Assembly: GCA_905215675.1 (NCBI GenBank)
Contig: CAJMRA010000001.1
Coordinates: forward strand, 1-39,972
Direction of reading: 5' to 3'
Length of the DNA stretch: 39,972 nucleotides
Origin: an uncultured bacterium
GTDB lineage: Bacteria; Desulfobacterota; Desulfovibrionia; Desulfovibrionales; Desulfovibrionaceae
A model generated the notes under the pieces. The model did no database searches and was not told the DNA's origin. It worked only from the letters and a program-made list of their open reading frames with translations. The translations under genes were made by a program, and so were the position numbers. Of this stretch, positions 16,347 through 39,650 are shown piece after piece (the first letter of the stretch is position 1; each line of letters starts with the position of its first letter).

Positions 16347-16376
16347 TGGCGTAATCCTTTGGGGTGACAGGCAGAG

Positions 16377-17315
16377 CTAGCCGCGCCGATTCTCATGATC
16401 CACATACCAGCGGTAGGTATCGCGGATGCCGTCTTCAAGGGGAATGCGCGCCTTCCAGCCCAGAGCGTGCAGTTTCGTCAGATCAAGGAGCTTGCGCGGC
16501 GTGCCGTCCGGTTTGGAGGCGTCCTGTACAAGTTTTCCCTGATAGCCGACGATATCGGCAATCATCCTGGCCAGCGCGGCAATACTGATTTCCTCGCCGC
16601 TTCCGATATTGACGATTTCCGCATCATCATACGTCTGCATGAGATACAGACAGGCGTCCGCCATGTCGTCCACATGCAGGAATTCCCGCAGGGCGGAACC
16701 GGTACCCCAGATGCGGACTTCGGGAGCCCGGGACCCTTTTGCCTCATGCAGGCGGCGCAGCAGGGCGGGCAGCACATGCGAATTTTCCGGGTGAAAATTG
16801 TCCTCCGGGCCGTAAAGATTGGTCGGCATGACGGAAATGGCGTCAAAGCCGTATTGGCGGCGGTAGGCCTGGCACATCTTGATGCCCGCAATCTTGGCTA
16901 TGGCATAACTGTCATTGGTCGGTTCCAGCGGGCCGGAGAGCAGACAGGATTCCGGCATGGGCTGAGGCGCGTTACGGGGGTAGATGCAGGAAGAACCGAG
17001 AAACAGCAGTTTTCGGACGCCGTGCCGGTACGCGGCGTCAATGACGTTTGTCTGAATTTGCAAGTTGTTGCGTATGAAGTCCGCAGGGTAGCAGGAATTG
17101 GCCTGAATACCGCCCACATGGGCGGCGGCCAGCAGGACATATTCAGGACGTTCTGCGGCAAAGAATTGTTCCACATCCGCCTGACGGCAAAGGTCCAGCT
17201 CCGCATGGGTACGAGTCAGCACATGGGAGCAGCCCTTGCGGTACAGGGCCCGGAGGAGCGCCGAGCCAACAAGTCCCCTGTGCCCGGCCAGATAGATACG
17301 AGCATTGTTGTCCAT
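16377..17315 (-). CDS. fcl: GDP-L-fucose synthase, 312 aa
   Basis: [45 protein letters not shown]. Confidence 0.96.
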
Positions 17316-17326
17316 TTTCCGCCCCT

Positions 17327-18475
17327 CTATCTTTCCGCGGCATTATGGAGTTGAAATCCGGCCTGCATGATGACGGCGTCCCGCAGGGCCTGCTGCAAAT
17401 CCTCGAGGACCATTTCCCGCACCGTGTCTTCAAAGGAAATGCGCGGAGCCCAGCCCAGTTCCCGTGCCGCCCTGGAAGGATCGCCCAACAGGGTTTCCAC
17501 TTCCGCAGGGCGGAAATAGCGCGGCGATACGCGCACGACACAATCCCCCGGCCGGAGAGGACTGGCGATTGTTCGTCCGTTGCAGAGCGCTTTCAGCCGG
17601 TCCGTGTCCAGATGCGCCACAAGGGCCTTTTCATCCAGCCCGGAGCCGCGCCATTCGAGCGACAGGCCAAGTTCTCCCGCCGCCCTGTTCACAAAGTCGC
17701 GCACGGAAAATTGCCGTCCTGTGGCGATGACGTAATCGCGAGGTTCCGCCTGTTGCAGCATCAGCCATTGCATACGCACGTAATCGGCGGCATGCCCCCA
17801 GTCGCGCAGCGCGTCCAGATTGCCGAGCGACAGCGCGTCGTCCAGCCCCAGCGCCAGACGCGCCAGCCCCCGCGTGATTTTTCTGGTGACGAAGGTTTCG
17901 CCGCGCAACGGCGATTCGTGGTTGAAGAGAATGCCGTTGCAGGCATAGATGCCGTAGGCTTCCCGGTAATTGACGCAAATCCAGTAGGCATAGAGCTTGG
18001 CGCAGGCGTAGGGACTGCGGGGATGGAAGGGCGTCGTTTCCTTCTGGGGCGTTTCCTGCACGAGGCCGAACAGTTCGGAGGTGGACGCCTGATAGAAGCG
18101 GGTCTTTTGTTCCAGTCCCAGAATACGGATGGCCTCCAGCAGACGCAGCGGTCCCAGCGCATCCACGTCAGCCGTGTATTCCGGCTGTTCAAAGCTGACC
18201 TTGACGTGACTTTGCGCCGCCAGATTGTAGATTTCATCCGGCTGAATTTCCTGTACCAGGCGAATGAGGTTGGCAGAATCCGTCAGATCCCCGTAGTGCA
18301 GCTGAAAGCGATCCGGGCTGTGGTGCCATTGCTCATAAAGGGCATCGATGCGTCCCGTATTGAAAAGCGATGAACGACGTTTGATGCCGTGAACGGCATA
18401 ACCCTGCTCCAGCAGAAATTCCGCCAGATAGGCGCCGTCCTGCCCTGTAATGCCTGTAATAAGCGCTGTTTTCAT
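17327..18475 (-). CDS. gmd: GDP-mannose 4,6-dehydratase, 382 aa
   Basis: [58 protein letters not shown]. Start re-assigned to 18475. Confidence 0.97.
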
Positions 18476-18492
18476 AAGAGTTCCAGAGCTGT

Positions 18493-21417
18493 TTACCGGG
18501 GGCGGCGTCCTTCCGCATGCCCGAACGTCAGATAATGCCAGAAGGGATTCATTCCCGCGGCGGCGATATCCTTGTTTTGCGTCAGGTAGGCATGACTGTC
18601 GAACCACGGCGCAGGATTTCTGCCCTCCCTTGCGCCGTGCAGCACATAGTGGGAGACGGCGTCCATGGTCGCCGACAGCGTGTCGGGATAGGCGCGCATG
18701 TACCAGGCGCGATCAAACGCGCCGTGAGCGGCCAGATCGCGGATTTCCTTTGCCTGCCGGGGCGTGACGGAGCGCGGCATGTACACGGCGGCGGGATTGC
18801 CGCTCAGGACAAGAACCGGCTGATGAGAAACATTGCCGAGCGGTCTGTGCGTCAGATCCGTTGCCCGCAGGCCGAACGACTTGAGCAGGGTCCATTTTTC
18901 CAGCAGCAGCGGCAGGCGGCGCGGGCCATAGATGCGGTGGGCGTTCCAGGCGAGACAGTCCGGCCCCGTGGGCACAGCCAGAAAGAGCAGACCGTCCGGC
19001 GTCAGATGACGGACGGCCTCTTCCATGGCGCGCAAGTCGCCGTCCGGGTTCAGTGGATCGCCATAACGGCCCAGACCGTCGTGTTCGAACGAGGAAATGG
19101 AAATGGCAATGTCGGCCTTCAACGCGCTCTTTTTCAATTCCGCCATGCTGATGACGTCAACTTGCGGATGATCGCAGCGCGGCGGATTATAATCCACTGC
19201 CACAACGCGCCTTGCCCCAGCGGCAAGGGCCAGCGCGTCACAGTTGCATCCGGCAAGGCCGTAGACGAGCACCGTCTTGCCCGCGGGAGAAAATTCGCTG
19301 AAAGCGCACTGCAACAAGGGCAGGGTATCGCCGTAATATTTGAAGGAACCATTTTCTATGGCGCGGATGGTCTTGTCGTAGACTTCCCGGGTATTGTTGA
19401 CAGGCGTTGCGCGGCGATTATCCAGATAATAATCGATAACCGGCACGACGCCGCCCATGGTGTAGTGATCGCGCAGTTCGGCGGGCATATGGCGCGGCGG
19501 CGTGGTATCCCTGCCCGTCAGTACGGCAAAGTTGCCGATATGCACTTCGGGATAGCGGGTGATGCAGGGCGCATCCTGCGCCGTCGGGAAGGTATCGGCC
19601 GACGGGGTGAAAGTCCCCGCATCCCGTCGGACGAAGGTGATTTCAAACAGGCTGGATACCAGAAAATCACGGAATCCGAGTATGTTTCCATTATTATTGT
19701 AGTGGAAATGCACAACGCGATGCGTTTTGCAAATCTTTTTAAATATCCGCGTGTAGAAGGGGAGTTTTTCCCTGTTTGTCAGATCGTGAAATTCCACGAT
19801 AAGCTGGCGGAAGCGGCGCAGCTGATCGTCCGTGATGGTCTCGAACACGTCCCATTCCGCGCCCTCGATATCCATTTGCAGGATGATATTCCGTTCTTCG
19901 GCATGCCCGAAGCGGGAAAGAATCTGACTGATATTGCTCGTGCCTTCGGGCGGTTGTGTCTTGCCGGAAATATTGAGCTTGAAGAAAAAAAGATTGGGAT
20001 GGTGGTCCGGCGCGTCGTCGATGGTACCGTCAAACTGCCAGACCTTGAAGCCGCGTTCGGCCATCTGTCTGTCCCACGGGGAATAGCCGCTGACGCCGAA
20101 GGAATAGGCAATGCCGTCCCGGCCGGGATCAGGCATGACATAGCCGCCGTCGTTGTTGCCGCCGATACGTACCTTCTTGCATCCCTTGATATCGTACGGA
20201 GTCAGCAGGGTGAAAAGACGCCGATAGGCGGCTTCCAGTTCCGCGTCCCGGGACCAGCTGAACCGGGCCTTGTCGCCGGCCTGCTGCATGCGTCTGGCGG
20301 CGGATTGCAGCACGGCCGCCCGCTGCGCCGCCAGATCTGGGGTCGGCGCATCCAGCGCGGCATGCTCCCGCAGCAAGGCGGGAGAAAAGGCCGTCATGGC
20401 GGCCAGTTCCGCCAGAGGCCTGACGAGTTCGGCATCCTTGGGGCGGAAGGGCAGTTCCCGGAACAGGGATTCCGCATCCAGTCCCGCCTGCCGCGCCAGC
20501 GGCTGCACGACGGCATCCCTGACGCTGTCGAGCGCCAGAGCCAGATTCTTTTCATGTTTGTGCGCCCAGCAGCCGTGGGGATCCTTGGGCTGCGGCGTGC
20601 CTTCTTCAATGATATGAATCAGGAACTTTTCCAGATCATGTTCCGCGGGATCATAGTCCGGCTGCATGGGCGGCTGATGCAGCATTTCCAGATAGGCGTC
20701 GTCGTGCGTATCCAGATACTTGACGTAGTCGATGACTTCGTCAAAGTCGGCAAAGTCGTGACAGTTGATAAAGGCTTTGGGGTTGAATTCCCGCGTCACC
20801 GCCGGATCGCCCCAGTAGATGGGCACGGAATTGGCCTGCAAGGGCTGCGTCAGTTTTTCCGTCACATAACCGGGCGTGGAAGAATTTTCAAAGGCAATGG
20901 TAAATTTATAGTTCTGAATAAAATCAAGTTTTCCCTTTGCCCAGTTGCCGTTGCGCGGCTCAATGGCATTGTTCATATTGTTGAGAACTTTGCCCGGGCA
21001 ATCGACATGTTTATATTGCATCAGTTTTTGACAAAATTTCTGACGTACTTGTGCTGATGTGTTAGAGTATATGAAATTGCAGAATTTTCTGGATGCCAGC
21101 TCTTCCGGTGTGAGCGTCAGGGGATCGCGCTTTGTAAAACGTGAATGCCGGAAATAGCGATCTTCAAATGAAATATAGTCAAAACCGATGGCATAGTCGC
21201 ATGTATTGAAATCAGGGCGTACATTTTCTGTTGTCCAGAATATTTTTATTGCACTGCTAAAGGTAGTATATCTATATCTATTGTTATAACAGGAGTAGAA
21301 TAAATATTCAGGAGTTTCTGATATATCTACAATGTAATATTTTTTTAATATATTAAATATGCAGCCGATTTGAGGCGAGTGATAATCGCAAAAAGCAATG
21401 GAAATTTTCTTTTTCAT
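18493..21417 (-). CDS. Multidomain protein: GT10 alpha-1,3/4-fucosyltransferase + FkbM/Methyltransf_22-like + DUF268-like + C-terminal FD..Y...PDV...HY..G..EGR repeats, 974 aa
   Basis: GT10 motif [20 protein letters not shown]...VPIYWG; methyltransferase [10 protein letters not shown]...YSFGV...QMDIEGAEW...[10 protein letters not shown]268-like [21 protein letters not shown]...WNAHRIYG. Confidence 0.85.
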
Positions 21418-21517
21418 TGATATAATCCTTTGTTATGTTTTCTTGAATATATATTCAAAATAGTTTTATTGTTTAGGAAGGATAGTTGATAGCACTGCTG
21501 TCTCCGGCATCGCACCT

Positions 21518-21799
21518 TCACGGCTGTGATACGTTTCGGATCAGAAAGTCGTAAAAGGGATTACCGCTGACAGACGTCTGATCGTGCTGTGCCCTTTCGC
21601 AGACTGAGGCATCGAACCACGGCGCGGGCTTGCGCCCTTCAGCGGCTCCATGACAGACATAGTGATAGATGGGATCCATGCCGGAATACAGGACGTCGGG
21701 ATTCTGTTTCAGATAGTATGGGGCGTCGAATTGTCCGCTTTGCGCAATGCGGCTGCAGATCGCAAGGATATCGGGCGACGGCGTTTCGGGGGCAGACAT
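21518..21799 (-). CDS. Stand-alone FD..YY...PDV...HY..HG..EGR-repeat protein, 93 aa
   Basis: FDAPYYLKQNPDV...HYVCHGAAEGRKPAPWFD, paralogous to the C-terminus of the 974-aa protein; AAGGAG RBS upstream. Confidence 0.7.
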   Translation of the reverse strand: MSAPETPSPDILAICSRIAQSGQFDAPYYLKQNPDVLYSGMDPIYHYVCHGAAEGRKPAPWFDASVCERAQHDQTSVSGNPFYDFLIRNVSQP

Positions 21800-24700
21800 G
21801 CTTCTTTCTCCTTCTCATGTTTTGCGTCGGCTTCCTGTTGCAGGCGTCGGGCGTAGTCTGTGACAAGGTAACGCAGATATGTACGCGAGCAGCTTAACTT
21901 TTTCAGGATATCATCAGTTAAAGGGGTTGGTTTGCCGGCTACGGCACAGGCTTTAATATACTGGAGCAAATTTTTTAGATGATGAGGTTTTCGGGCAAAA
22001 CGTTCCATGCCGATGGACTCCAGCAAATACATATCGGCATCAGAATTGAGGGCGACGCTTTGAATCATCGTGAAAAAGGCTGCGATATTATCAATTACTG
22101 CCATAAAGAAATCTTTTCCACGGTGATGGGGGCGCATGATGGAAGGATTTTTGGATTTTGTGACATGTGTATATGCTAACAGGTCAATATATTTTACTTT
22201 TGTTGCATGTCCATAGGCGCTCAGCAAAAAAAGTTCATCTCCATTGGCTTTTGTTGGATTAAATTGGCAGTGGCCGGACTCAAGCAATTCTTGTTTGAAG
22301 AGAATTGACCAGCAGGCATAAGTTGGAATTTTTTCCATGAGGTAGGCCTGCACGGCTTCCCGGCCTGTCAGAACGAGTCCATCCGGCATCTGTTTGCGGT
22401 AGAGCTCCTTGCCTGACAGGAGGTCCCATGCCCTATAGGTACAGACAAGCATATCAATAGATCCGTCCTGCTCCATATGCTGCAATGCCTGCTGAAAGAA
22501 TCCCGGCTCAAGCCAGTCGTCGCTGTCCACAAAGGTAATATATTTTCCGGCAGCGTGAGAGAAAACAAGATTGCGGGCCACAGACGGACCGCTTGATTGT
22601 GATGTCCTGAATAGTCTTATATTATTATGTTTTTGTGCATATGATTGGCAAATGGTAAATGTATAATCTGTAGAACAATCATCTATTAAAAGTATTTCAA
22701 TGTTTTCGATATTCTGTGCCAATATGGAGTCAAGACAAGATGAAATTGAGATTTCAGTATTGTATGCTGGTATAATAACGGAAAGGGCACAAGGGGATAT
22801 CGTCGATACGGAATTTTCATAGGGAATAAGAAATGTATCTGGACGTATAATATCCTTTGTCAGGGAGTCTCTATCTTCATTGGGTGATTGTTGTTTGATT
22901 GATATGTCGTCAATATAAAGACGCGCGTAATCCTCCAGCAGCAGGCGCAACAAATGCGGCGCCTGTTGCAGGTCTTCCATCATGGTGTCGGTTAAAGGCG
23001 ATATGGAGGTGTCCTGCAAGGAGGCCAGCCATGCACAGGCATCGCGAAAGTGATAAAAGATGCTTTTCAGACGCAATGGGATAAGGTCGTCACGTTTTTG
23101 CTGGAGGAGAAAATTTTCTGTTAACGCCGCAATATGGAGGCTCCCTGCGAAATGGCGTTCCGTCTTTTGCGGGGCCGTCATCGTGCTTGCAGGATGCGGG
23201 GTACGTATGTTGACATAATAATCCCCTTCCTCAATGAGAAATTTCCGGGCAAACCTATATACTTGCAATAGGAAGAAATTGTCTTCATAAAGACAGTGCG
23301 GCGATGTTATACCGTAATGATGTAAAAATTCTCTGCGATATATTTTGGACCATACAGCCCATGATTTGAGTTTCCCTTGACAATAGGCTTCCAGAAGTTC
23401 GTTTCCCTGATAGCAGCGCGGAGGCATATATGCATCATAGATCATACGGCCGGCAACGTCATGGCGGCGATAATTGAAATGCACGACATCGATATCCTTG
23501 AATTGCTCAAGGATACTGACGCCGCGCAGGAAAAAGTCCGCTTTGATATAGTCGTCGCTGTCCACATAGGCGATATAGGTTCCGCGCGCCAGTTCCTGCG
23601 CCCGATCCCGTGAATAGCCCTGTCCGCCGTTGCGTTCATTGCTGTAGACGCGCACGCGCGCATCCTGCGCCGCCAGAGCCTCGCAGACGCGCAGTGTGCT
23701 GTCCGTGGAGGCGTCGTCAATGACAATGATTTCCAGACGGCGCAGACTTTGCCCCAGAATGCTGCGCAGGCAGCGTTCAATATATTTTTCCTGATTGTAG
23801 ACAGGGACAATGGCCGTCACCAGCGGCTGTTCCGTGGCCTCGGGGAGGAATGCCTGTTTCCGGCGTTGCGGCAGTTCGGGCAGGATGCCCGCCGGGATGG
23901 AACCTCGGGCGCGACAGCGGGCGTAACCGATCAGCAGGGCCTTGATAAAGGCAGGATTGCTTTCCAGATCTGCCCAGTCCTGTTCCGTAAGGGCGACGTC
24001 GCCTGTAGCTTCCATATATGCCAGAAGAGGAGGCAACAGTCTGTTTTCTATGGAGTATGGCAGAGAAGGCTGCACTTCTGAAAAAAATTGTCTCTTTTTT
24101 ATTTTTGCACAGGCAGAGCGGATATGACGATAGGTAGAGTTGTCCGGCAGAATGATGGAATGCGGCACATGTACGACTGTATAGACGGAACCGCCGGGCA
24201 ATGTACGGATGCGAGAACTTTGCAACAGGACATCCATCATAAAATGCACGTCCTGATGATACACGCCGACGGCAAAACGGCACTGCTTTTTTTGCAGGAA
24301 AGCAGCGCGAAAGATTTTTCCCCAGGGCCCCCAGGGCATGGCGCTTTTATGGTATGCATAGAGAGCCTGTCTGCCGCCTGCACAGAGAGGATGGCAGGCG
24401 ATGCGCCGCACATCTCTTCCGTCAGAATCAACTTCGCGCACGTCATAGGCCAGCATGTCTGCTGCGGGATCGGTCTCCATATCCCGGCAGGCACGAGCAA
24501 AGAAACCGGCTTCCACGCGATCGTCGCTGTCCACAAAGGTCAGATAGCGGCCACGTGCCAGATCGATGCCGATATTGCGACAGACGCCCTGCAAACAGTT
24601 ATGCGCCATTCTGAACAGTCGGATGCGGCGATCGCTCCGGGCATAGTGTTGCAGCAACGTGTAGCTGTCGTCGGTGGAGGCGTCATCTATGACAAGCACC

Positions 24701-27700
24701 TCAAAGTCGGCCATGTCTTGACGCAGGATGCTGTTCAGGCAGGTGGCAAGCCAGGGGGCCTTGTTGTAGTTGGGCACGATGACGGACAGCAGCGGCGCAG
24801 CGCCCGTCGGATGCAGACTGTTGCCCCAGGCCGTGAAATCACGCGGCGGCAACAATTCGGTCGCGGCCTTGCGCCAGTCCCGATCCTCTGCGGCGACGCG
24901 GGGGGTCAGCCCTTCGCGCCAGCAGTACAGACGGGCATAGTCCGTGAGGATGCAGCGCAGAATTTCCCGGGATGAGGCAAAGGCGGCAAGATTTTTTTCG
25001 GAAAGGAGTTCGTCTGTCTTTCCCTGTTTGTCGACTTCCCCCAGCGTGTCGAATAGCCGTCGGCGATCCCAGTTGTAGAGGCGTTGCAGGCAGTACCGGT
25101 AGCCTTCATCCTCAAGGAACAGGCCGTTCTGCCGGAAGAAATTGGTCAGAAAGGCGGCAAAACGGGTAAAGGAGGTGAAATACGCCTCACTTGCTGGAGA
25201 GGAGGCGTTGGAGCCGGGACGCAGATAGCGGCAATAGCCGATGTCCGCTATGGCCAGCGTCTTGCGGGAAAAATAGAAGGCCTGCACGCTGAAGAACATA
25301 TCTTCATGCACGCGGGTATCGCTGTAGCGCACGGCATGATGGCGCAAATGATCGGCGCGATACAGGCGCGCATAGGTGGCGTAACCTCCGATATTCTGGA
25401 GCAGCAGTTGCCGCAGGGAATCCTTGCCGCTCCACGTGCCTTCGGTAATGCCCCAGCGTTCTTCCTGATGGTTCTTGTCATGGACGAGCATGTCGAAGCA
25501 GACGATATCCGCCTGTTCCGTTTCCATGAGCGCCATGCCGCGTTGCAGGAAGCCTTCCGCCAGCATGTCGTCGCTGTCGATGAAGGTCAGATAGCGCCCG
25601 CAGGCCCTGTCCATACCGGCATTGCGCGCCGGGCCTGCCCCCTTGTTTTCGTAAAAGCGCAGACTGCGGATGATATGCGGATAACGCCGCGCATATTCGG
25701 CGATGATGTCGGGCGTACTGTCGCTGGACGCGTCGTCCACAAGGATGATTTCCACATCCGGCACGCCCTGAATCAGCACGCTGTCCACACAGCGCCGCAG
25801 CGTATCTTCATTATTGTGTGCGGGGATGACGACGGAGACGGCGGGCTCCTTTTCCGCAACGGGGCGCAGCAGGGCCTGTGCCCGTTTCCAGGCCTTGTCC
25901 TGCGGCGGCAGGGCATAAAGGCAGGTTTCGTAATACCACCAGCCATGATGCCCTATATAAAGGGTATAATCGGGATGATGACGGAGCAGCCGGAGGGGAA
26001 TATCCAGATAGTGATCGGGATGGTGATACAGGGAAATCTGCAACTTGGGATAATCGCGGGCAATGGTGCCGGCCGCCCCCTCCAGACAGGCCATTTCCGC
26101 GCCTTCAATATCCAGCTTGATCAGGCTGCACCGTTCCAGCCTGTCCCGCAGGTAGCCGTCGATATCTATGGAACGGCATTCTTCCGTACGTTCGTTGGGC
26201 TGCGTCACCATGCGGCTGCCGCCGCCCTGATCCTCGATATAAAAGGTGGCGGCGCAGGACCAGAGTCCCAGCTGTTCGAGGGTAATCCGGGGATGCGCGC
26301 CGATTCTTTCCCGAATGGCATCACAGGCGGCCCGGCGGAGTTCAAACGCAAAGACTCGGCCTTGTTCGCCTGCGATTTCGGCAAAGGTTTTTGTGGTTTC
26401 GCCGTCATTCAAGCCGCCTTCAATAATGCTGTCTCTCGGCTCCGCATGCACCAGCGGATGCGCATATTGCGGATAGGCGGAGATGGGCAGATAGCCGGGA
26501 TCGCCGCTTTCCAGCGCTTTCATGGCCCGCAAAAAGACCTCGCGGCTTTCTTCGTCCGCAAGCGCCGCGTAGATGCGGACAATATCCGTAAACCGTTGCC
26601 GTACAATATGAGGCCGGGGAGGCCGCGCCTGCATGGGGCGCGCGACGGCGGCATCCAGCTGGACGCTTGTCAGTCCCGCGGCCGCGCAGAGCCGCAGCAA
26701 AGGCTGGATGCACCCCTGTTCCCAGAAGCGCCTGTCCGGTCGCGCATACAGGCAGAACCGCCGCTGCTCCAGCGTGTCGCGGGCGACAAGGGGCACTATG
26801 GAAACCTGCAGGCGCGCGGCGGTCTCCTCCCGGGCGGGATGGGGCGAGCCGTCCCAGTCGGCCAGTACAAAGGGCGGCAGGAAGGGCAGCGGCGGATCCT
26901 GCTGCCGGTAATGCCGCACGGCCTCTTCCAGCACGTCGCCGAAGGTGACGACGGCGGTCGTGACGGGGTCAATGCGCTCGACGGTCTCGCGCAGGGGGCG
27001 CAGTTCCTGAAAGTGCGCGCGGACAAGGGCGCGCATGTCCGGCTCTCCGGTGACAGGATTGATCAGGGAAGGAGCGTCGCAGGAGCGTTGCAGCGCCAGG
27101 TCGCGCCGTCGCTGTAATTCCGCTTCGGCCGTTTCGGCATCTTCGGCGGACGGCGGCAGGTTGCGCAACGGGCAGGCTTCCTCGTCGCAGCGGACGATGT
27201 GCGGCAGGGCGTTCCGTGCCTCCTCATCCATATCCCAGAGAAAACCGCGGTTGAGCCCGTACGCGCAGGATGATGTGTGACAGGAACCGTTGCAGTCAAT
27301 ATGGACATTCTGCACGCCGAGACAGCAGAAACGCTCTTCGCTGACGACGACGGGCGCGGACGTCGGGCCGGTTGCCGCAGGCCGGGCAAGGGGCCGCATG
27401 GGCAGGGGGGCGGCCTGCGCGGCGCGCGCGTCGAATTGGCGTTGCGCCGTTGCGCGCCATTGCCGCCGATCTTCGGGACAGGGGTATTCCTGCCCGTCCG
27501 TTGTCAGGACCGGAGCAATATCCAGGGCAAAGGGAAGAACGCGCCGCAATCCGCACAGGGCGGAAAAAAAGCGCTGCGCTTCCTGATGACGATCCGGGTG
27601 GTGCATGAGCCGTACATGCGCAAGTTGTCCGGCCTCGGCCACTGTGGCGACCACTTCCAGAACATGCTGCGGATCGGCATGTTCCAGATGTACGGAAAGA

Positions 27701-28038
27701 AGGACTTCCAGCCTTTGCGGGGCGGCGGCGTCCGCAAGGGAACGGTACAGGGCGAGAGGGGCGGAACCGTTGGTCTCCAGCGTGACGGCGATGTCGTAAC
27801 CCGTGGAGAAAAGATAGCGCGTCAGGTCCGGCAGCAGCGGATGCAGGGTAGGTTCCCCGCCTGTAAGGATAAAATGATAGGCCGCGTGCGGCATGGACAG
27901 GAGACGATAGGCGGAAAGCAGCAGACGATCCCGGACAAGAACGCAATTTTTCAGATCATGCTCCTGCCGACAGTAGGAACAGCCATAGTTGCAGGCGGAA
28001 ATAAGATTCCAGGTGATGGAAAGGGTATCGCTGTGCAT
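21709..28038 (-). CDS. Giant multidomain enzyme: radical SAM + Cys-rich (SPASM/twitch-like) + FkbM methyltransferase + four GT2 domains, 2109 aa
   Basis: CNYGCSYC, LTGGEPTLHP, ETNGS; CCLG..HIDCNG..SSC..CDEEAC; EGGLNDGET..FAFE..IKLDIEGAE..ISLYHH. Four GT-A starts (VSVVIPAHN, LSVIVPNYN, VTAIVPVYN, LSVIIPAYN), each followed by a (F/Y)(I/V)DSDD motif. Confidence 0.88.
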   Translation of the reverse strand: MHSDTLSITWNLISACNYGCSYCRQEHDLKNCVLVRDRLLLSAYRLLSMPHAAYHFILTGGEPTLHPLLPDLTRYLFSTGYDIAVTLETNGSAPLALYRSLADAAAPQRLEVLLSVHLEHADPQHVLEVVATVAEAGQLAHVRLMHHPDRHQEAQRFFSALCGLRRVLPFALDIAPVLTTDGQEYPCPEDRRQWRATAQRQFDARAAQAAPLPMRPLARPAATGPTSAPVVVSEERFCCLGVQNVHIDCNGSCHTSSCAYGLNRGFLWDMDEEARNALPHIVRCDEEACPLRNLPPSAEDAETAEAELQRRRDLALQRSCDAPSLINPVTGEPDMRALVRAHFQELRPLRETVERIDPVTTAVVTFGDVLEEAVRHYRQQDPPLPFLPPFVLADWDGSPHPAREETAARLQVSIVPLVARDTLEQRRFCLYARPDRRFWEQGCIQPLLRLCAAAGLTSVQLDAAVARPMQARPPRPHIVRQRFTDIVRIYAALADEESREVFLRAMKALESGDPGYLPISAYPQYAHPLVHAEPRDSIIEGGLNDGETTKTFAEIAGEQGRVFAFELRRAACDAIRERIGAHPRITLEQLGLWSCAATFYIEDQGGGSRMVTQPNERTEECRSIDIDGYLRDRLERCSLIKLDIEGAEMACLEGAAGTIARDYPKLQISLYHHPDHYLDIPLRLLRHHPDYTLYIGHHGWWYYETCLYALPPQDKAWKRAQALLRPVAEKEPAVSVVIPAHNNEDTLRRCVDSVLIQGVPDVEIILVDDASSDSTPDIIAEYARRYPHIIRSLRFYENKGAGPARNAGMDRACGRYLTFIDSDDMLAEGFLQRGMALMETEQADIVCFDMLVHDKNHQEERWGITEGTWSGKDSLRQLLLQNIGGYATYARLYRADHLRHHAVRYSDTRVHEDMFFSVQAFYFSRKTLAIADIGYCRYLRPGSNASSPASEAYFTSFTRFAAFLTNFFRQNGLFLEDEGYRYCLQRLYNWDRRRLFDTLGEVDKQGKTDELLSEKNLAAFASSREILRCILTDYARLYCWREGLTPRVAAEDRDWRKAATELLPPRDFTAWGNSLHPTGAAPLLSVIVPNYNKAPWLATCLNSILRQDMADFEVLVIDDASTDDSYTLLQHYARSDRRIRLFRMAHNCLQGVCRNIGIDLARGRYLTFVDSDDRVEAGFFARACRDMETDPAADMLAYDVREVDSDGRDVRRIACHPLCAGGRQALYAYHKSAMPWGPWGKIFRAAFLQKKQCRFAVGVYHQDVHFMMDVLLQSSRIRTLPGGSVYTVVHVPHSIILPDNSTYRHIRSACAKIKKRQFFSEVQPSLPYSIENRLLPPLLAYMEATGDVALTEQDWADLESNPAFIKALLIGYARCRARGSIPAGILPELPQRRKQAFLPEATEQPLVTAIVPVYNQEKYIERCLRSILGQSLRRLEIIVIDDASTDSTLRVCEALAAQDARVRVYSNERNGGQGYSRDRAQELARGTYIAYVDSDDYIKADFFLRGVSILEQFKDIDVVHFNYRRHDVAGRMIYDAYMPPRCYQGNELLEAYCQGKLKSWAVWSKIYRREFLHHYGITSPHCLYEDNFFLLQVYRFARKFLIEEGDYYVNIRTPHPASTMTAPQKTERHFAGSLHIAALTENFLLQQKRDDLIPLRLKSIFYHFRDACAWLASLQDTSISPLTDTMMEDLQQAPHLLRLLLEDYARLYIDDISIKQQSPNEDRDSLTKDIIRPDTFLIPYENSVSTISPCALSVIIPAYNTEISISSCLDSILAQNIENIEILLIDDCSTDYTFTICQSYAQKHNNIRLFRTSQSSGPSVARNLVFSHAAGKYITFVDSDDWLEPGFFQQALQHMEQDGSIDMLVCTYRAWDLLSGKELYRKQMPDGLVLTGREAVQAYLMEKIPTYACWSILFKQELLESGHCQFNPTKANGDELFLLSAYGHATKVKYIDLLAYTHVTKSKNPSIMRPHHRGKDFFMAVIDNIAAFFTMIQSVALNSDADMYLLESIGMERFARKPHHLKNLLQYIKACAVAGKPTPLTDDILKKLSCSRTYLRYLVTDYARRLQQEADAKHEKEKEACLPPKRRRPISLRSAAALRKADNSTPHTI

Positions 28039-28049
28039 ATAATGCGCCT

Positions 28050-30791
28050 TTATTTATAAATTTTATGATTAATACTATTTTTTTCAGGATGCAGACGGGC
28101 AAGCAGCCGCATATAGGCTTGTTCGGCCTCCCGGGACGCGGGGACAGGGCGGGGAAAAACGGCGGGCCGTCGTCCGGGCAGGGTCGACAGCAGGCGCAGG
28201 CAGTGCGGCGTGTCGTCGTAGACCAGCAGGTCGTCCCCGGCAAGGCGCAGGCGGGACGGGCAGAGGATGGGCAGGCCCGCGGCCCGGTACATGCCGATCT
28301 TGATGGGATTCATGAACATGGAAATATCGTCCAGCACATGCGGCACGATGGCCGCGTCCATGCGGGACAGGATGGCGAGGGTCTCGCGTTCCTCCGTGAC
28401 GCCGTGATAAATGACGCCGCGCGCGATCAGGGCGTCCAGCGCGGCGCGGGCGCGCTGCGCCGTTCCCGCCAGATGCAGGCGCACGCCGGGCTGGACGGCA
28501 ACGGCCTGCAACAGGGGCCAGTCCAGCCGATCGTTCATGTTGCCCGAATAGAAAATGTGCCGTTCCGGGCCGGGCAGGGGGCGCGCCGCGGGAACGACGC
28601 CGTCCGGCGGCGTATACCAGTTGGGGATGACGGCCGCGTCGGCGGCATGCGGAAAATGGCGCTCCGCAAAAAAGGCCCGCATCTGCTCCGTATTGAAGAC
28701 AAGCTGCGCGGCGGAGGCCGCCAGACGGAAGTATTGATCCAGCAGGCGGCAGCGGCGGGCGTCGTCGGCGGCCCAGCCGAGCTGATTGTCCACCACGTCA
28801 ATCAGGCGGACATAGGGGCGCAGGATATCTTCCACCTCTTCCAGCGCCTCGATAATCGGAAACAGCACAAAAAGGCTGTTGTCCGGCGAGAGCTTTTCCC
28901 GGACAAGAAAGGCGAAAAGGGCGTCGCGCAGCTCCTGCCCCGAACCGTGCCGCAGGGTGCGGAGAAAGACGCCGTCACGCATGAGCCCCGGTAGTTTGAG
29001 GGCAAGAAGATGCGAACGGAGCGCCTCTTCCCCGGTGAAATCCTCTTCCGGCAGGGGGGAAGCGTCCTGTTCCTTTTCTTCCGGCGTCGCGTTCCCCAGC
29101 TGCTCGAAGGTCTCGGCATCCGTAACGGAAACAGCCGTGCGCGGGGCTTCGTCCGGCAAATGATCTTCAAAAAATTCCAGAATAATGACGCGGTGTCCGG
29201 GAAAAGCGCGCCGATAGCTGCGGGCTATCTGATCGACGCGTCGTCCGTACAGTCCGGCATCGTGCTGCTTCCAGAGCAGCACCAGCGCCGGAGGCCCGTC
29301 TTCCTCGTCCGTTTGCGGCGGCAGGCCGTCCAGAATCCGCAGCGCCGGAACCGGCACGGCCTCCTGTTCGGCGGCGGCAAAGGCGGCGCAGGCTCCTTCC
29401 GGCGTGAACTCGTCCGGCAGCGTCACGGGCCGCTTTTCGGAGAGCGCCGCCACGAGTTGATCCGTGAAGGTGCGTTCCGTAAAGGGATATATCCCGGGAA
29501 GATCGCGCAGATCGGCGATGGCCGGGCCGTCAGGAACCAGAATCGGGCGGCCTGCGGCCAGGGCGTCGGAAATCTTGGCGGGCGTCTGGTGTGCCGCAAC
29601 GGCACGGATCGCGTCGTCCCGGGCGGCTGCGGGGTAGCCGCTGATCAGGACGTGCATCCGCGCCGTTGCGGCCGGCAGGTCCGCAAGGGAAACCGTGCCG
29701 TGCAGTTCGGCTCCGGCATGGAGCAGCTTGTCTCGGTATTCAGGGGGTTGAACGTCGCCACAGCAGTGGAACCGCAGCGGCAGGCCCGTTGTGGCGGCCA
29801 GCAGGCGCACAGCGCGGGCGGCGGCAAGAACATTTTTGTGCGGCCGCGCCGTACCGATAAAGCCGATATGGTAGACGTCCCTGCCGTTGCCGTCCGGCGT
29901 CGGGCGGGGCGTCCGGGAGCGCGCATGACGCACGATATGGCCGCCGAAGCGCGCCCGAAGCGGAGGGCTGACGACCGTGCGCGCGGGAATCGCGTCCCGC
30001 AGGAAGTGCGCCAGCGGGAGCCCCGGCGCGTCATAGCAGGCCCGCGAGTCCGGCTGCCGGGCGCTGAAGGCGTCTTCGTCGTCGTCGATATCCAGAAGAA
30101 AGCGGGTCTGATCGTGAGAGACCGCCGCAGCCAGCCGGAAGGAAGGCAGGCGCGGCTTGCAAATCCAGACCGTATTGAAGACGATGCCATAGCGACGCAG
30201 CAGAATATGCGCCTCGTGGCGCTGCTTCCAGGGGATGGCGACCAGGGGAAAGTCGCAATGGAGCAGGGGCGGCCAGAGGCTGCCGCCGAATTCCTCGTGC
30301 AGATAGCAGAGCAGCACGGCGGGACGGCGGCAGGCCGCGATGTCGTACAGCACCTTTGCCCGCCCTATGGGATTGTGCGCGCCGTCCCAGCAGACGATGC
30401 CGACGGCGTCGGAGCGGCGCGCCGTGGCGGCGGCCCGCCGGAGCTGGGCTTCCAGCCCCTGTTCGCAGACGGGATGCGCAAGGGAGCGACGCAGCGAGAG
30501 AAAGACGCCGTCGGCCGTGACGCCGTACAGGGACAGGACGGCTCCCGCCGGGGCCGCGGGAAGGCGGCAGGCAAAACCGACGGTATCCGGACCGGTGAAG
30601 CCGAACTTCTGGCAGACGTCTGGCCGGGGAATGGCCGCATCCGTCAGCACGGCCGGTTCGTCATTCACGAGAACCAGCGGGCGCACGTCGGGCGCGACGC
30701 CGAGCAGCCAGCCGTGGAGCATATCTCCCTGAATGAGATCCATTGCTCCCGGCAGCAGCGGCGAGGTCTCTGCGGATACCGTCGTCAGCAT
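28050..30791 (-). CDS. Multidomain GT-B fold glycosyltransferase-like protein, 913 aa
   Basis: GFIGTARPHKN...PAKISDALAAG and FYSGNMNDRLD...MNPIKIGMYRAAGLP, i.e. two GT-B-type C-terminal motifs. The N-terminus (GWLL...RPDV...GF) resembles accessory domains of glycan enzymes. Confidence 0.7.
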   Translation of the reverse strand: MLTTVSAETSPLLPGAMDLIQGDMLHGWLLGVAPDVRPLVLVNDEPAVLTDAAIPRPDVCQKFGFTGPDTVGFACRLPAAPAGAVLSLYGVTADGVFLSLRRSLAHPVCEQGLEAQLRRAAATARRSDAVGIVCWDGAHNPIGRAKVLYDIAACRRPAVLLCYLHEEFGGSLWPPLLHCDFPLVAIPWKQRHEAHILLRRYGIVFNTVWICKPRLPSFRLAAAVSHDQTRFLLDIDDDEDAFSARQPDSRACYDAPGLPLAHFLRDAIPARTVVSPPLRARFGGHIVRHARSRTPRPTPDGNGRDVYHIGFIGTARPHKNVLAAARAVRLLAATTGLPLRFHCCGDVQPPEYRDKLLHAGAELHGTVSLADLPAATARMHVLISGYPAAARDDAIRAVAAHQTPAKISDALAAGRPILVPDGPAIADLRDLPGIYPFTERTFTDQLVAALSEKRPVTLPDEFTPEGACAAFAAAEQEAVPVPALRILDGLPPQTDEEDGPPALVLLWKQHDAGLYGRRVDQIARSYRRAFPGHRVIILEFFEDHLPDEAPRTAVSVTDAETFEQLGNATPEEKEQDASPLPEEDFTGEEALRSHLLALKLPGLMRDGVFLRTLRHGSGQELRDALFAFLVREKLSPDNSLFVLFPIIEALEEVEDILRPYVRLIDVVDNQLGWAADDARRCRLLDQYFRLAASAAQLVFNTEQMRAFFAERHFPHAADAAVIPNWYTPPDGVVPAARPLPGPERHIFYSGNMNDRLDWPLLQAVAVQPGVRLHLAGTAQRARAALDALIARGVIYHGVTEERETLAILSRMDAAIVPHVLDDISMFMNPIKIGMYRAAGLPILCPSRLRLAGDDLLVYDDTPHCLRLLSTLPGRRPAVFPRPVPASREAEQAYMRLLARLHPEKNSINHKIYK

Positions 30792-30811
30792 GAGCCTTCC
30801 CCGTTTCCGCC

Positions 30812-32143
30812 TCAGCGTCCGGCGGCGTTGTTCGTTGCGCCGCGGGGGGGAAGGTCTTCCCCTTCCTCCTCCAGCAGAACGAGATTTTCCAGCGCGCCGC
30901 CGCCCGCGTCCGTGGCGGGGCTGCCTTCCAGCAGAACCTGCTTGAGGGCGGGCAGGGTTGCGTCCGTACCCAGCGCCCGGATGCTCTGGATATTGTCGTC
31001 GAAGAAGCCTTCCGGCTGATGGGCGAGATGATGCAGCACACGGCGGGCAAGGGCGTCCACGTCGCCGAAGGGCATCAGATCAAGGCCCTTCAGGTGACGG
31101 AATTCCTGCACAGGCGGCGTGTCCGACGCCACGATGGGCAGACCCAGCGCCGCCGCTTCGAGGAAGGACCACGACAGGATGAACGGCGTGGTCAGATAGA
31201 CATGGCAGGCGCTCAACTTGAGCATGGCGAGATAGAGCTTGCGATCCAGCATGCCCAGAAAATGCACGCGCTTCCAGTCAACCTTGTCGCCCAGTTCGCG
31301 TTCCAGGCTCTTGCGCCAGCTCACGCCCTGCGGATTGGCCTTGCCGTAGCCGATATTCCTGATTCCCGCATCCTGCCCCATGACGATGACGTGCGCCTCG
31401 GGATTGCCGTTCAGAATGGCCGGCAGGGCGCGCATGAAGTAGTGAAAGCCGCGCACGGGTTCCAGATGACGCGCGCAGAAGGTAACGATGGGCATGCCCT
31501 TGCGCAGCTTGACGCCCTGCGAGGGAATGCCCAGCGCGCGCGGCCGTACCGCCGCCAGTTCTTCCAGATGCAGCCCTTCGTGGATGACGTGCATCTTTTC
31601 CTGCGCCCAGGCGGGAAAGCGGCTTTTTTGCCATTGCGTGGGCGTGACGGCGGCGTCGCATTCGCTGAGGGCATGCAGGAAGGGCGTATTTTTCAGCGTC
31701 AGGCGCAGTTCGTCTTCCTCCGACAGGGGAGGAAAGGCCGGATCAAAGTTCACTTCCTGCCCGTGCGCGTTGTAGAACCATTCCGCATAGACGACATAGC
31801 GCGCGTCCGGCCAGACGTTTTTGACATACAGGGCTTCTCCCCAGCCGGGATGCGCGTAGACGACGTCGGGATTGAGTCCCTTGCCCTTCAGCAGCTTCAT
31901 GGCCTTGTAGGCGCTTTCCGCACGAATGAGCTTGGCGTCCATGTCCCGCAGCAGGTACGGCGTCTTTTCGTTGTCCTGACCGCGCAGGGGCATGTAGCGG
32001 TACTGGGTGACGCCGGGCAGGGCGTCCTGTGGGGTCATGGACAGCGCCGCGACCTTGTGTCCGTCAAGGGCCAGGGAACGCGCCGGTGCGTCGAACTGGC
32101 AGGGAAAGGACTGATGGATGAAAAGAATGGTGCGGGGATTCAT
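30812..32143 (-). CDS. GT4 glycosyltransferase, ExpC-like, 443 aa
   Basis: ILFIHQSFPCQF, AHPGWGE, RHLEPVRGF, HVYLTTPFILSWSFLEA. Start re-assigned to 32143. Confidence 0.85.
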   Translation of the reverse strand: MNPRTILFIHQSFPCQFDAPARSLALDGHKVAALSMTPQDALPGVTQYRYMPLRGQDNEKTPYLLRDMDAKLIRAESAYKAMKLLKGKGLNPDVVYAHPGWGEALYVKNVWPDARYVVYAEWFYNAHGQEVNFDPAFPPLSEEDELRLTLKNTPFLHALSECDAAVTPTQWQKSRFPAWAQEKMHVIHEGLHLEELAAVRPRALGIPSQGVKLRKGMPIVTFCARHLEPVRGFHYFMRALPAILNGNPEAHVIVMGQDAGIRNIGYGKANPQGVSWRKSLERELGDKVDWKRVHFLGMLDRKLYLAMLKLSACHVYLTTPFILSWSFLEAAALGLPIVASDTPPVQEFRHLKGLDLMPFGDVDALARRVLHHLAHQPEGFFDDNIQSIRALGTDATLPALKQVLLEGSPATDAGGGALENLVLLEEEGEDLPPRGATNNAAGR

Positions 32144-32168
32144 GGGTATTCCTTGCTGGATCGTGAAG

Positions 32169-36553: not shown

Positions 36554-36566
36554 GGTTTTTCGGGAA

Positions 36567-36590
36567 GGGCGTCCCCCTGCGGGGACGCCC
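36567..36590 (-). terminator. GC-rich stem-loop just downstream of the surface-protein gene
   Basis: GGGCGTCCCC-GCAG-GGGGACGCCC, a 10-bp perfect stem with only a weak U-tract; 13 nt upstream of the next ATG. Confidence 0.6.
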
Positions 36591-36618
36591 GGGAAGAGGT
36601 TGCTGACGACGGGCCTTG

Positions 36619-37752: not shown

Positions 37753-37955
37753 ATGGTTCCTCCCGAGATGAGGCTTGCGCCGGTTGCCTGCGGTTGTGAG
37801 CAGAGAGGCCGCCCGGCGCTGGTTCGGTTCAGGCATCTTTCAGGAAACAGGCCGGACAGGAAATTCGGCAAGCGGGAGCCGGGACCGAATGCCTGTCTTC
37901 CGGAAGCGCACGTTGCCGCCGACATTTTCCGAAAAGGGCCAATCCCGAAGATGAG

Positions 37956-39428: not shown

Positions 39429-39650
39429 GCGCTTTGCTCCTGAAAAAACGGTGAATGCCGATATCGCCTGTACGGGGTCCGTCGGGATTGACGGCGGGCG
39501 CACAGGAGATTGCGACAGTGTATCACGGTTTCATCTGCGGAATGCACGACCTGCAGGTCTTATATTTTTTTATATAAATTAGTATGTTTGCGATGGTTTG
39601 CCGCACTACGGCGCGGCGCGAGCGGGCGGTTCCGGGACGGTCGAAAAGTC

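Follow-up and report, generated by a model that had tools for sequence, protein, structure and literature searches.

The locus

The window is a 39,972-nucleotide stretch of DNA from an uncultured gut bacterium of the family Desulfovibrionaceae. It contains an open reading frame, P0001, that begins with ATG, has no internal stop and encodes 2109 amino acids (Table 1). Along this protein, Pfam matches occur in the order radical SAM, FkbM methyltransferase and four GT2 glycosyltransferase domains, and no transmembrane segment was found in it. The initial annotation had described an uninterrupted frame with a CxxxCxxC radical SAM domain, a Cys-rich region, an FkbM domain and four tandem GT2 domains, a description confirmed by the ORF translation and Pfam; its domain limits, converted to residues 1–196, 237–290 and 520–708 with GT2 starts at 732, 1082, 1405 and 1752, match the tool results. 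The anaerobic host that it assumed is consistent with the family.

The gene shares its strand and gene string with wzm, wzt, GDP-sugar genes and further glycosyltransferase genes. The ATPase Wzt carries a carbohydrate-binding module (CBM), Wzt_C (PF14524), at its residues 273–407 (E 2e-29), and this module implies that the chain is capped. In the related genome G067, a syntenic cluster that includes wzm and wzt and has the same order of upstream genes encodes a 1955-aa protein that likewise combines a radical SAM domain with four GT2 modules.

Table 1. Features of the 2109-aa gene and its neighbourhood (positions in the window)
Feature	Residues	Positions	Strand	Basis or remark
Whole ORF P0001	1–2109	21709..28038	(-)	radical SAM + twitch + linker + FkbM + 4 x GT2
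Radical SAM core	1–210	27409..28038	(-)	PF04055, AF2 model, fold matches, invariant columns
CxxxCxxC	C16, C20, C23	27970–27993	(-)	inside radical SAM core
Twitch-like auxiliary Fe-S region	236–296	27151..27333	(-)	conserved columns, fold matches
Linker domain, small alpha/beta unit	347–480	26599..27000	(-)	second AF2 model
FkbM-family methyltransferase	481–712	25903..26598	(-)	PF05050, TIGR01444, PDB 2py6
GT2 module 1	725–1062	24853..25866	(-)	helical tail
GT2 module 2	1075–1398	23845..24816	(-)	
GT2 module 3	1400–1722	22873..23841	(-)	
GT2 module 4	1745–2072	21823..22806	(-)	low G+C (GC3 0.44)
Read-on tail	2079–2109	21712..21804	(-)	peculiar to this strain
93-aa ORF		21518..21799	(-)	other frame, overlaps tail
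974-aa GT10 fucosyltransferase with two methyltransferase-like regions		18493..21417	(-)	next gene downstream
GDP-mannose / GDP-6-deoxyhexose precursor genes		14934..18607	(-)	ManC-like, epimerase/reductase, GDP-mannose 4,6-dehydratase
Wzm-like ABC-2 permease		10433..11218	(-)	PF01061
Wzt ATPase with C-terminal Wzt_C carbohydrate-binding module		9232..10500	(-)	PF00005 + PF14524
Upstream genes		28050..37836	(-)	913-aa GT1, GT4 (Glyco_trans_4_3), 748-aa GT2, 806-aa GT2, DUF4214 protein

Integrity of the fused gene

A 98%-identical protein of 2077 aa was found on three contigs. Two contigs from other sequencing runs, of 8796 nucleotides (run X1) and 15532 nucleotides (run X2), are colinear with positions 21510–28300 of the window. 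They belong to a different strain, in which 1.8–5.6% of the letters differ, and they span all domain junctions. It is extremely improbable that the frame is an assembly chimera, or separate genes run together by sequencing error: the source is a fragmented metagenome bin of 423 contigs and G+C declines from the linker (GC3 0.84) to GT2 module 4 (0.44), but the contigs of the other strain are colinear over every junction, the same architecture recurs in P0002, P0003 and G067, GT2 segments lie behind the head in 54 of 59 long relatives, and the G+C gradient matches what the two strains display, mosaic recombination of their GT2 cassettes. The fusion is thus not an assembly artefact, one of the cases that the initial annotation had named as refuting it, since contigs of a 95–98% identical strain from other runs cross every junction. 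The 2109-aa frame is a single real gene of this bacterium.

The radical SAM head and its auxiliary cysteines

The radical SAM domain (PF04055) is matched at residues 11–129 with E 4.3e-10 and 40.4 bits, above the cutoff of 29.5. Its cysteine triad, C16, C20 and C23, is shared by all 64 aligned family members (alignment A2), as is the SAM-binding GGE motif at residues 60–62 (G60, G61, E62), and the head retains all 10 invariant columns of this alignment. It differs from that of the related strain at one of 346 residues, and the triad is intact also in the 36%-identical homologue from G067. The AF2 model of the head (pLDDT 87.8, pTM 0.86) shows a confident radical SAM barrel, a partial TIM-barrel, with a twitch-like end.

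The Cys-rich region contains C238, C239, C249, C253, C258, C284 and C289, among which C238, C258, C284 and C289 are conserved across the family. The SPASM profile PF13186, which describes a seven-Cys motif for two auxiliary clusters, gave no Pfam match at E values up to 1. Because just four cysteines are conserved in the family, the region is better regarded as twitch-like than as a full SPASM domain. The closest fold neighbours of the model are SkfB and BlsE (Z 16.6 over 263–266 residues), followed by viperin-like enzymes (15.5), anSME (15.3), DesII (13.8) and BtrN (12.7).

The head thus resembles BlsE (7vob), SkfB (6efn), anSME (4k36-39), BtrN (4m7t) and DesII (8hzv) in its partial TIM-barrel and CxxxCxxC motif, and twitch/SPASM enzymes in general in the Cys-rich beta-hairpin region at its C-terminal end, which would hold an auxiliary cluster; the matches extend to about residue 296, with Z 12.7–16.6 over 212–276 residues. 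It differs from these enzymes in that sequence identity is only 10–16%, in having neither a Pfam SPASM match nor a family model above cutoff, and in that fused heads lack the last cysteine of the family CxC. The known twitch/SPASM enzymes, moreover, act on small molecules or peptides, not on polymer ends. None of the named radical SAM equivalogs (BlsE, viperin, MoaA, anSME, BtrN and others) exceeds its curated NCBIfam cutoff, the top scores being NrdG2 with 33.6 bits against 131 and viperin with 33.1 against 180, and stand-alone relatives likewise score below the cutoffs (30/30). No family model, fold match or neighbouring gene names the reaction or the substrate of the head. Since the invariant residues are all kept, the head of the 2109-aa protein is likely to be active, as judged from its sequence.

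Linker, methyltransferase and glycosyltransferase modules

Residues 347–480 form a linker domain without a Pfam match, which is found only in P0002, P0003 and P0004 (three of 59 long relatives). In a second AF2 model, of residues 330–725 (pLDDT 52.5), it is the sole confident part. The methyltransferase that follows is matched by FkbM/Methyltransf_21 (PF05050) at residues 542–674 with 39.3 bits (cutoff 22.7), by TIGR01444 with 52.2 bits (cutoff 37.7) and by PDB entry 2py6, “Methyltransferase FkbM” (E 1.3e-11).

Glycos_transf_2 (PF00535) matches the remainder in four stretches starting at about residues 735, 1082, 1409 and 1751 (434.9 bits, E 2.1e-131). Every GT2 module contains DDxSxD and DSDD motifs, the latter at residues 821, 1170, 1493 and 1838. 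All catalytic hallmarks are therefore present in one polypeptide: CxxxCxxC, GGE, the four auxiliary cysteines and, in each GT2 module, DxD. In the related strain, a diverged sequence takes the place of the C-terminal half of GT2 module 2 (24007–24467). Codon 2079 is a stop in that strain, and P0002 ends at K2078. The 93-aa frame overlapping the read-on tail is homologous to the repeat domain that P0004 carries in frame at its C terminus (BLASTP E 5e-17).

Relatives and repeated loss of the cysteine triad

The family was surveyed through its 150 best representatives at 50% identity, 57 of which are at least 1000 aa long, and GT2 modules are present in all 29 long relatives scanned. The architecture is not rare: the fusion of a radical SAM head to GT2 arrays defines a large clade that is widespread in metagenomes, yet unstudied. 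The initial annotation knew of no characterised radical SAM domain fused to such an enzyme, and this holds here as well: the long fused representatives include no named entry, and a literature search found no studied case of such a fusion. Matches to Omnitrophota loci are weak. The pairing of radical SAM with methyltransferase is not a general rule, as Pfam FkbM had no match in any of these 29 proteins.

In the tree, the fused heads group together as a single clade. The second cysteine of the terminal CxC is gone in 29 of 30 members of this clade. CxxxCxxC is intact in all 63 stand-alone relatives (300–499 aa), which adjoin GT2 genes at three of five loci examined. Among the fused proteins of at least 1000 aa, the triad is intact in 35 and degenerate in 19 of the 54 that could be aligned (four could not), a count that speaks against the radical role proposed below for the head. 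The tree of fused heads requires eight losses of the triad, at least four of which are forced by well-supported branches, and one 12-member clade is degenerate throughout. In degenerate members the domain itself persists, usually with GGE and frequently with the auxiliary cysteines. The repeated loss of the triad indicates that the head also has a non-catalytic role in many relatives.

The head may be mainly structural here too, serving oligomerisation, docking, spacing or glycan holding, and its radical chemistry might be vestigial or non-essential even in proteins that retain the cysteines; on this view, the protein would amount to a plain polymerase/terminator made of a methyltransferase and four GT2 modules. 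The confinement of triad loss to fused proteins and the persistence of the degenerate domain argue for this, as does P0004 (11 member sequences), which has the same linker, FkbM and four-GT2 body but no head in frame. Such a reading is nevertheless rather unlikely for the 2109-aa protein, which keeps each invariant residue of the active family; the same is true of the relatives with 98% and 36% identity, and most alignable fused heads remain intact.

Comparison with known polymerase-terminator systems

A Wzm/Wzt cluster with a Wzt_C module makes the fused terminator-polymerase proteins, namely WsaE, Klebsiella O7 ORF6 and WbbB, the closest likeness. In these enzymes, N-terminal terminator modules are joined to C-terminal glycosyltransferase polymerase modules, and the CBM of Wzt reads the cap (PMC11231755, PMC2943079). 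ORF6 of Klebsiella pneumoniae O7 has an N-terminal methyltransferase-kinase and GT2 modules with DxD motifs, the Kdo transferase of K. pneumoniae O12 WbbB is an N-terminal terminating module, and a coiled-coil ruler is described as characteristic of terminator proteins (PMC11231755). WsaE of Geobacillus stearothermophilus NRS 2004/3a similarly unites an N-terminal methyltransferase with glycosyltransferase domains in one soluble protein, and its methyl cap stops chain growth before export by Wzm/Wzt; it has two glycosyltransferase domains and no Fe-S domain, and it acts in the glycosylation of S-layer proteins of a Gram-positive host (PMC2943079).

Like ORF6 and WbbB, the 2109-aa protein is one soluble polypeptide with an N-terminal modifying module, here a putative terminator, and C-terminal glycosyltransferases, and it is clustered with wzm and with a wzt bearing a cap-reading CBM. 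It differs in having four GT2 modules rather than two and an N-terminal pair of radical SAM and FkbM domains, which is not known from any characterised terminator. No coiled-coil ruler is seen in residues 1–346, where helices of the AF2 model are at most 20 residues long, a point against a terminator role; residues 330–725 are modelled too poorly to judge. No sequence kinship with ORF6 or WbbB emerged beyond generic GT2 and methyltransferase folds.

In E. coli O9a, the polymerase WbdA is of the GT4 mannosyltransferase type. WbdA and WbdD resemble the present case in combining a polymerase with a terminator responsible for chain length and for modification of the non-reducing end, but they are separate proteins, and the terminator is a kinase and methyltransferase with a coiled coil (PMC3482155). 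The analogy with multi-glycosyltransferase and methyltransferase enzymes that polymerise and cap glycans, drawn in the initial annotation, fits the wzm gene, the Wzt_C-bearing wzt and the syntenic cluster in G067.

A proposed function and its implications

The 2109-aa protein may well polymerise and cap a glycan resembling O-antigen, whose end the radical SAM head is predicted to tailor by hydrogen-atom abstraction. In this model, the four GT2 modules would extend a lipid-linked chain by the sugars of a repeat unit on the cytoplasmic side. The N-terminal half, comprising radical SAM and FkbM, sits where WsaE, O7 ORF6 and WbbB have their terminator modules and would make a cap at the non-reducing end, which the Wzt module would have to recognise before export.

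BtrN and anSME pass an electron to a fully Cys-ligated auxiliary cluster. By analogy, the radical SAM domain would cleave SAM, abstract hydrogen from a sugar C-H bond and pass the electron to such a cluster, yielding a keto or epimerised sugar, and FkbM would contribute an O-methyl group to the cap. This specific chemistry is the weakest step of the proposal and must be considered doubtful, although radical tailoring of the glycan by the head is in itself plausible. Radical chemistry on a growing glycan, which had been proposed at the outset, is not to be assumed, given the repeated loss of the triad among fused heads, although activity is likely in this protein with its full set of invariant residues.

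The head could instead be active outside capping, modifying a nucleotide-sugar donor or internal residues of the chain and thereby supplying or tailoring what the neighbouring GT2 module uses as substrate. BlsE, DesII and viperin have nucleoside- or nucleotide-linked substrates; enzymes of this kind are among the top fold matches, and the viperin and BlsE models are weakly similar in sequence. Single GT2 genes directly adjoin stand-alone relatives, and most fused relatives have no full methyltransferase partner. The fold likeness, however, extends across the SPASM/twitch group as a whole, with peptide maturases scoring equally, no nucleotide-binding motif was identified, and characterised fused enzymes carry their terminator modules at this same N-terminal position, so that this role is unlikely.

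Extended to the whole clade, the capping proposal would mean that an N-terminal twitch radical SAM domain makes a radical-derived cap read by the carbohydrate-binding module of Wzt, and that it has become a non-catalytic scaffold in about one third of the lineages. This generalisation is speculative and on balance improbable. The cap would be a terminal sugar in keto form, epimerised or functionalised at a C-H bond in some other way, in the present bacterium also O-methylated. If the proposal is true, radical SAM cap-makers would be chain terminators of a new class, and this protein would be the first radical SAM enzyme to act on a growing polysaccharide.

Organization of the fusion protein and its gene cluster

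The protein under study, P0001, is read from a single frame of 2109 codons that begins with ATG and has no internal stop. Its domain boundaries, proposed at the nucleotide level in the initial annotation, fall on the same residues as the Pfam stretches. The radical SAM motif CxxxCxxC is formed by C16, C20 and C23 (the triad), and a Cys-rich stretch follows with C238, C239, C249, C253, C258, C284 and C289. All four GT2 modules contain DDxSxD and DSDD motifs and are closed by a helical tail with a "..DYAR.." motif. They share 26–31% pairwise identity, and no tandem DNA repeats are present in 21000-28500; judged by their sequences, the modules are old duplicates, not a recent repeat. A whole-protein window scan revealed no membrane helix (top 19-residue hydropathy 1.59). 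A class B (cobalamin) radical SAM methylase was ruled out, as no B12-binding domain is among the Pfam matches of P0001.

Features of the gene cluster in order of transcription, with the domains of P0001
Feature	Position	Strand	Remarks
Phage-type integrase	38403-39503	(-)	upstream edge of cluster
DUF4214 protein	top of gene string	(-)	
Two large GT2 proteins, 806 and 748 aa	after DUF4214 gene	(-)	
GT4 protein	after 748-aa GT2	(-)	Glyco_trans_4_3
GT1 protein, 913 aa	stops 11 nt before P0001 ATG	(-)	
P0001, 2109 aa	21709-28038	(-)	
P0001, Radical_SAM	residues 11-129		Pfam 40.4 bits, cutoff 29.5
P0001, FkbM methyltransferase domain	residues 542-674		Pfam 39.3 bits, cutoff 22.7
P0001, four Glycos_transf_2 stretches	starts near residues 735, 1082, 1409, 1751		Pfam E 2.1e-131
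93-aa ORF	21518-21799	(-)	overlaps last 31 P0001 codons in a different frame
974-aa protein	18493-21417	(-)	directly downstream of P0001; alpha-1,3-fucosyltransferase (FucT_N + GT10), Methyltransf_22/FkbM-like and DUF268 methyltransferase-like regions
GDP-mannose 4,6-dehydratase, epimerase/reductase, ManC-like enzyme	downstream of 974-aa protein	(-)	
Two further GT4 proteins	after ManC-like gene	(-)	
Wzm-like ABC-2 permease	10433-11218	(-)	
Wzt ATPase with C-terminal Wzt_C module	9232-10500	(-)	E 2e-29
HlyD-like adaptor, double-ATPase ABC protein, two ABC-2 permeases	1-5168	(-)	downstream of glycan cluster

Every credible gene in the window is encoded on the minus strand. The cluster is laid out like those of ABC-transporter-dependent O-antigen-type pathways, where the completed chain bears a cap that the transporter reads. 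The 974-aa GT10-methyltransferase fusion is unusual and perhaps makes a methylated fucose. At the upstream edge, the integrase coincides with a drop in G+C (52–59%); no tRNA was found in the window, and the two features may mark an island boundary.

A candidate terminator joined to a candidate polymerase

In ABC-transporter pathways, a terminator module caps the non-reducing end of the glycan and the CBM of Wzt recognizes this cap; export is restricted to capped chains (available text of PMC11231755). Termination determines how long an ABC-transporter-dependent O-antigen becomes and clears it for export. The characterized caps named in that text are only methyl, methyl-phosphate and Kdo, and they are made by methyltransferases, kinases and GTs. 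Klebsiella O12 WbbB and O7 ORF6, described there as well, carry an N-terminal terminator and C-terminal GT polymerase modules in one polypeptide, with a coiled coil between them. WsaE similarly has an N-terminal methyltransferase followed by two rhamnosyltransferase domains, and its 2-O-methyl-capped product is exported by Wzm/Wzt (available text of PMC2943079). No coiled coil is seen in the modelled head of P0001 (residues 1-346), and an AF2 model of the linker and FkbM domain (residues 330-725, 4-row alignment) has a pLDDT of 52.5, too weak for a coiled-coil judgement.

By analogy of position and context, the radical SAM and FkbM half of P0001 is a candidate terminator and the four GT2 modules a candidate polymerase, a reading whose chance falls just short of even. 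The GT2 modules would form up to four linkages, alongside the neighboring GTs. The head could abstract hydrogen in the manner of BtrN or anSME and oxidize the terminal sugar, after which O-methylation would follow; this particular chemistry is improbable as a specific proposal.

Fold and family of the radical SAM head

Searches of residues 1-346 against NCBIfam and Pfam yield generic sub-cutoff matches only, with the best NCBIfam match far under its cutoff, and Pfam finds no SPASM domain in the head. The same holds for the stand-alone relatives, which are unfused radical SAM proteins of 300–499 aa; in 30 of 30, the search for a curated family gave generic sub-cutoff matches only. A PDB sequence profile search matches generic radical SAM enzymes, and those over the initial ~120 residues only; an Atlas look-up leads to generic, mostly viral radical SAM clusters, which serves as a lead only.

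An AlphaFold model of the head, built on an alignment of 63 stand-alone relatives, is confident (pLDDT 87.8, pTM 0.86) and consists of a beta/alpha barrel followed by beta-hairpins that hold conserved cysteines. Foldseek and a second look with VIA match this model to SkfB (Z 16.6, 266 aligned residues), BlsE (Z 16.6, 263 aligned residues), SuiB (15.7), viperin-like enzymes (15.5), anSME (15.3), PqqE (15.1), MoaA (14.6), EpeE (14.4), DesII (13.8) and BtrN (12.7). The model thus shows a predicted twitch/SPASM-type radical SAM enzyme, and the spread of matches singles out no reaction. Among 64 aligned members, C16, C20, C23, G60, G61, E62, N90, H117, C238 and C258 are invariant and C284 is nearly so, while C289 is invariant in a 9-row alignment. 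P0001 keeps all of these residues, including C284 and C289. The four conserved tail cysteines fit a predicted single, fully ligated auxiliary [4Fe-4S] cluster.

Giant relatives in metagenomes

A word-index search for stand-alone relatives gave two weak matches and was superseded by an exhaustive comparison of residues 1-346 with 1.84 billion representatives, in which 199 matched at E <= 1e-10 and 14 at E <= 1e-30. The best 150 of these 199 comprise 57 proteins of at least 1000 aa, 22 of 500–999 aa and 71 that are shorter. A Pfam scan of 29 of the 57 long relatives placed between one and four GT2 stretches after the head in all 29, with a Radical_SAM match at E <= 1e-5 in 21 and an FkbM match in none. 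The architecture of a radical SAM domain followed by a GT2 array is therefore widespread in metagenomes. None of the ten long representatives checked by identity (from Logan, ENA or NCBI metagenome-bin sources) has a protein name.

Local phmmer comparison of P0001 pieces with 59 long proteins matched the GT2 segments in 54, and flank fragments of the FkbM segment, with the core absent, in 28. The linker (residues 347-480) was matched in only three: the 98%-identical sister-strain protein P0002 and two long relatives, P0003 and P0004. P0004, a protein of 1894 aa with 11 member sequences, lacks an in-frame head; it aligns colinearly with P0001 residues 332-2072 at 42% identity. P0003 contains a head, a reduced FkbM-like remnant, and then a complete body of linker, FkbM and four GT2 modules. 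These two architectures suggest that P0001 is a P0004-type body to which a radical SAM head is attached.

Intact and degenerate triads

Head matches were sorted by size and by the residues that align with C16, C20 and C23.

State of the CxxxCxxC triad in head matches, by protein length
Length	Intact	Degenerate	Not alignable
300-499 aa (stand-alone)	63	0	0
500-999 aa	20	1	1
1000 aa or longer	35	19	4
Under 300 aa (fragments)	5	3	0

Of the alignable stand-alone proteins, 23 of 31 retain the terminal CxC of the family, compared to 1 of 30 long proteins; P0001 is also without it. In a tree of 139 heads (FastTree only; 358 columns, three trait columns included; many long branches; rows under 300 aa, unalignable rows and P0004, P0006 and P0007 left out), the fused heads form a single clade of 53 rows with local support of 100, of which 33 are intact and 20 degenerate. 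The triad state needs 8 changes on this tree, at least four of them forced by well-supported branches, compared to a shuffled mean of 19; none of 500 shuffles was as low as 8. One sub-clade of 12 fused proteins is entirely degenerate. Degenerate heads mostly keep GGE and often keep the auxiliary cysteines. So, as far as the tree can tell, the fusion arose essentially once, and selection on the radical cluster was later relaxed repeatedly while the domain was kept.

On this pattern, the head in the fused clade must also serve a role independent of radical chemistry, and a mainly structural head is the leading alternative for P0001, though rather unlikely. The P0001 head differs from that of the sister strain at 1 of 346 residues, and the triad is intact in G067, a Desulfovibrionaceae genome with a syntenic cluster, at 36–38% identity to the P0001 head. 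By these comparisons, the radical SAM hallmarks are maintained in P0001's own line.

Stand-alone relatives near glycan genes

Neighboring genes were scanned at five loci that hold stand-alone relatives. In Brachyspira pilosicoli (L015:1730-14934), the relative lies directly after a GT2 gene, near genes for a polysaccharide pyruvyl transferase, three more radical SAM proteins, a GT61 and a nucleotidyl transferase. This locus has four radical SAM genes in all, one with SPASM and two of about 600 aa; B. pilosicoli is a cultured spirochaete and tractable for studying the stand-alone relatives. In a Pseudobdellovibrionaceae bin, a GT2 gene directly follows the relative. A Bdellovibrionales MAG (L020:1295-9209) contains six tandem paralogues of 425–448 aa each, which precede asparagine synthase, GT2 and UDP-glucose dehydrogenase genes. 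A glycan link is therefore seen at three of the five loci, and clear glycan context is absent at two. A head that acts on a nucleotide sugar or on internal residues of the chain, in place of a terminal sugar, is an unlikely second alternative to the terminator reading.

The fusion in another strain

The source genome is a fragmented bin (423 contigs, 92% complete). A 2077-aa protein recorded from three contigs is 98% identical to P0001 over the first 720 residues. Logan contigs from two runs recorded as animal gut metagenomes, X1 and X2, represent a different strain with 1.8–5.6% other letters; runs X5 and X6, with short pieces only, were left out. The region 21510-28300 is colinear with one 8796-nt contig of X1, and with a 15532-nt contig plus a second contig of X2, so every domain junction is bridged by another assembly. 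An assembly chimera is thus rejected, the uninterrupted fusion described in the initial annotation stands, and the chance that P0001 is an artefact is negligible.

Only two cassettes are diverged from the X1/X2 strain, 23040-23193 and 24007-24467, the latter being the C-terminal half of GT2 module 2. Both match the sole strongly differing region of the two proteins, residues 1188-1345. From the linker (GC3 0.84) to GT2 module 4 (GC3 0.44) the G+C content of the gene declines, a trend more in keeping with mosaic exchange of GT2 cassettes than with misassembly. G+C is 35–49% at 21000-23400, compared to about 63% elsewhere. This low stretch takes in GT2 module 4, a 291-nt gap and the first part of the fucosyltransferase gene, and is suggestive of a cassette of foreign composition acquired by recent exchange. 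The strains also differ by a compensated frameshift at 25192-25210, made up of two deletions of one base each and an insertion of 2 bases; it keeps the frame and alters about 7 residues (944-950) in the tail of GT2 module 1.

The last 31 residues of P0001 are a strain-specific read-on. They exist only because codon 2079 (21802-21804), a stop in the sister strain through a difference at 21804, is a Glu codon here. Two bases after the sister-strain stop comes the ATG of the 93-aa ORF, whose product shares homology (E 5e-17) with the repeat domain "NPDV..G.DP..HY..G..EGR.P" at the C-terminus of P0004. This domain is in frame in P0004; the module has therefore split off at this locus.

Distribution and significance

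The gene order recurs in G067: DUF4214, two GT2, GT4, a GT4+GT2 protein and a 1955-aa radical SAM protein with four GT2 modules, followed by GT8, methyltransferases, GT4s, Wzm and Wzt with Wzt_C. On the side where the window has the HlyD-like adaptor set, the G067 cluster has a type I secretion-like ABC/HlyD/OEP set instead. A close head occurs in just 2 of 200 other Desulfovibrionaceae genomes, namely G067 (E 4.7e-60, 1972-aa frame) and G177 (E 8.6e-29, 871-aa frame on a 3.8-kb contig), and 1 of 400 other genomes sampled across the phylum has a match at E <= 1e-15. GT2 module 1 has no orthologue in any of 30 further genomes of the genus, where the best match is 33% identical and in short frames; two of these genomes have a full-length Wzt at 63–68% identity. 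The gene is sporadic, with the patchiness of serotype-specific glycan genes.

A fused terminator-polymerase in a Wzm/Wzt pathway is of a known kind; a radical SAM module within such a system is not. Full-text searches outside the subscription journals turned up no report of a radical SAM domain that is joined to an O-antigen or S-layer glycan polymerase or works together with one, and no homologue bears a name, in agreement with the earlier view that no characterized enzyme is known to join radical SAM to a multi-GT/methyltransferase protein. PMC7159879, the one paper to mention fusion alongside both a radical SAM and a glycosyltransferase domain, concerns unrelated conflict systems in its available text.

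If the head is purely structural, the P0001 gene encodes an ordinary, though very large, serotype-specific polymerase. The occurrence of intact and dead heads within one clade offers a natural comparison of catalytic and scaffolding roles. Giant GT2 proteins from dozens of clusters at 50% identity conserve the head at the presumed terminator position, and a radical SAM enzyme at this position would bring oxygen-sensitive radical chemistry to the surface-glycan assembly of anaerobes, gut Desulfovibrionaceae included.
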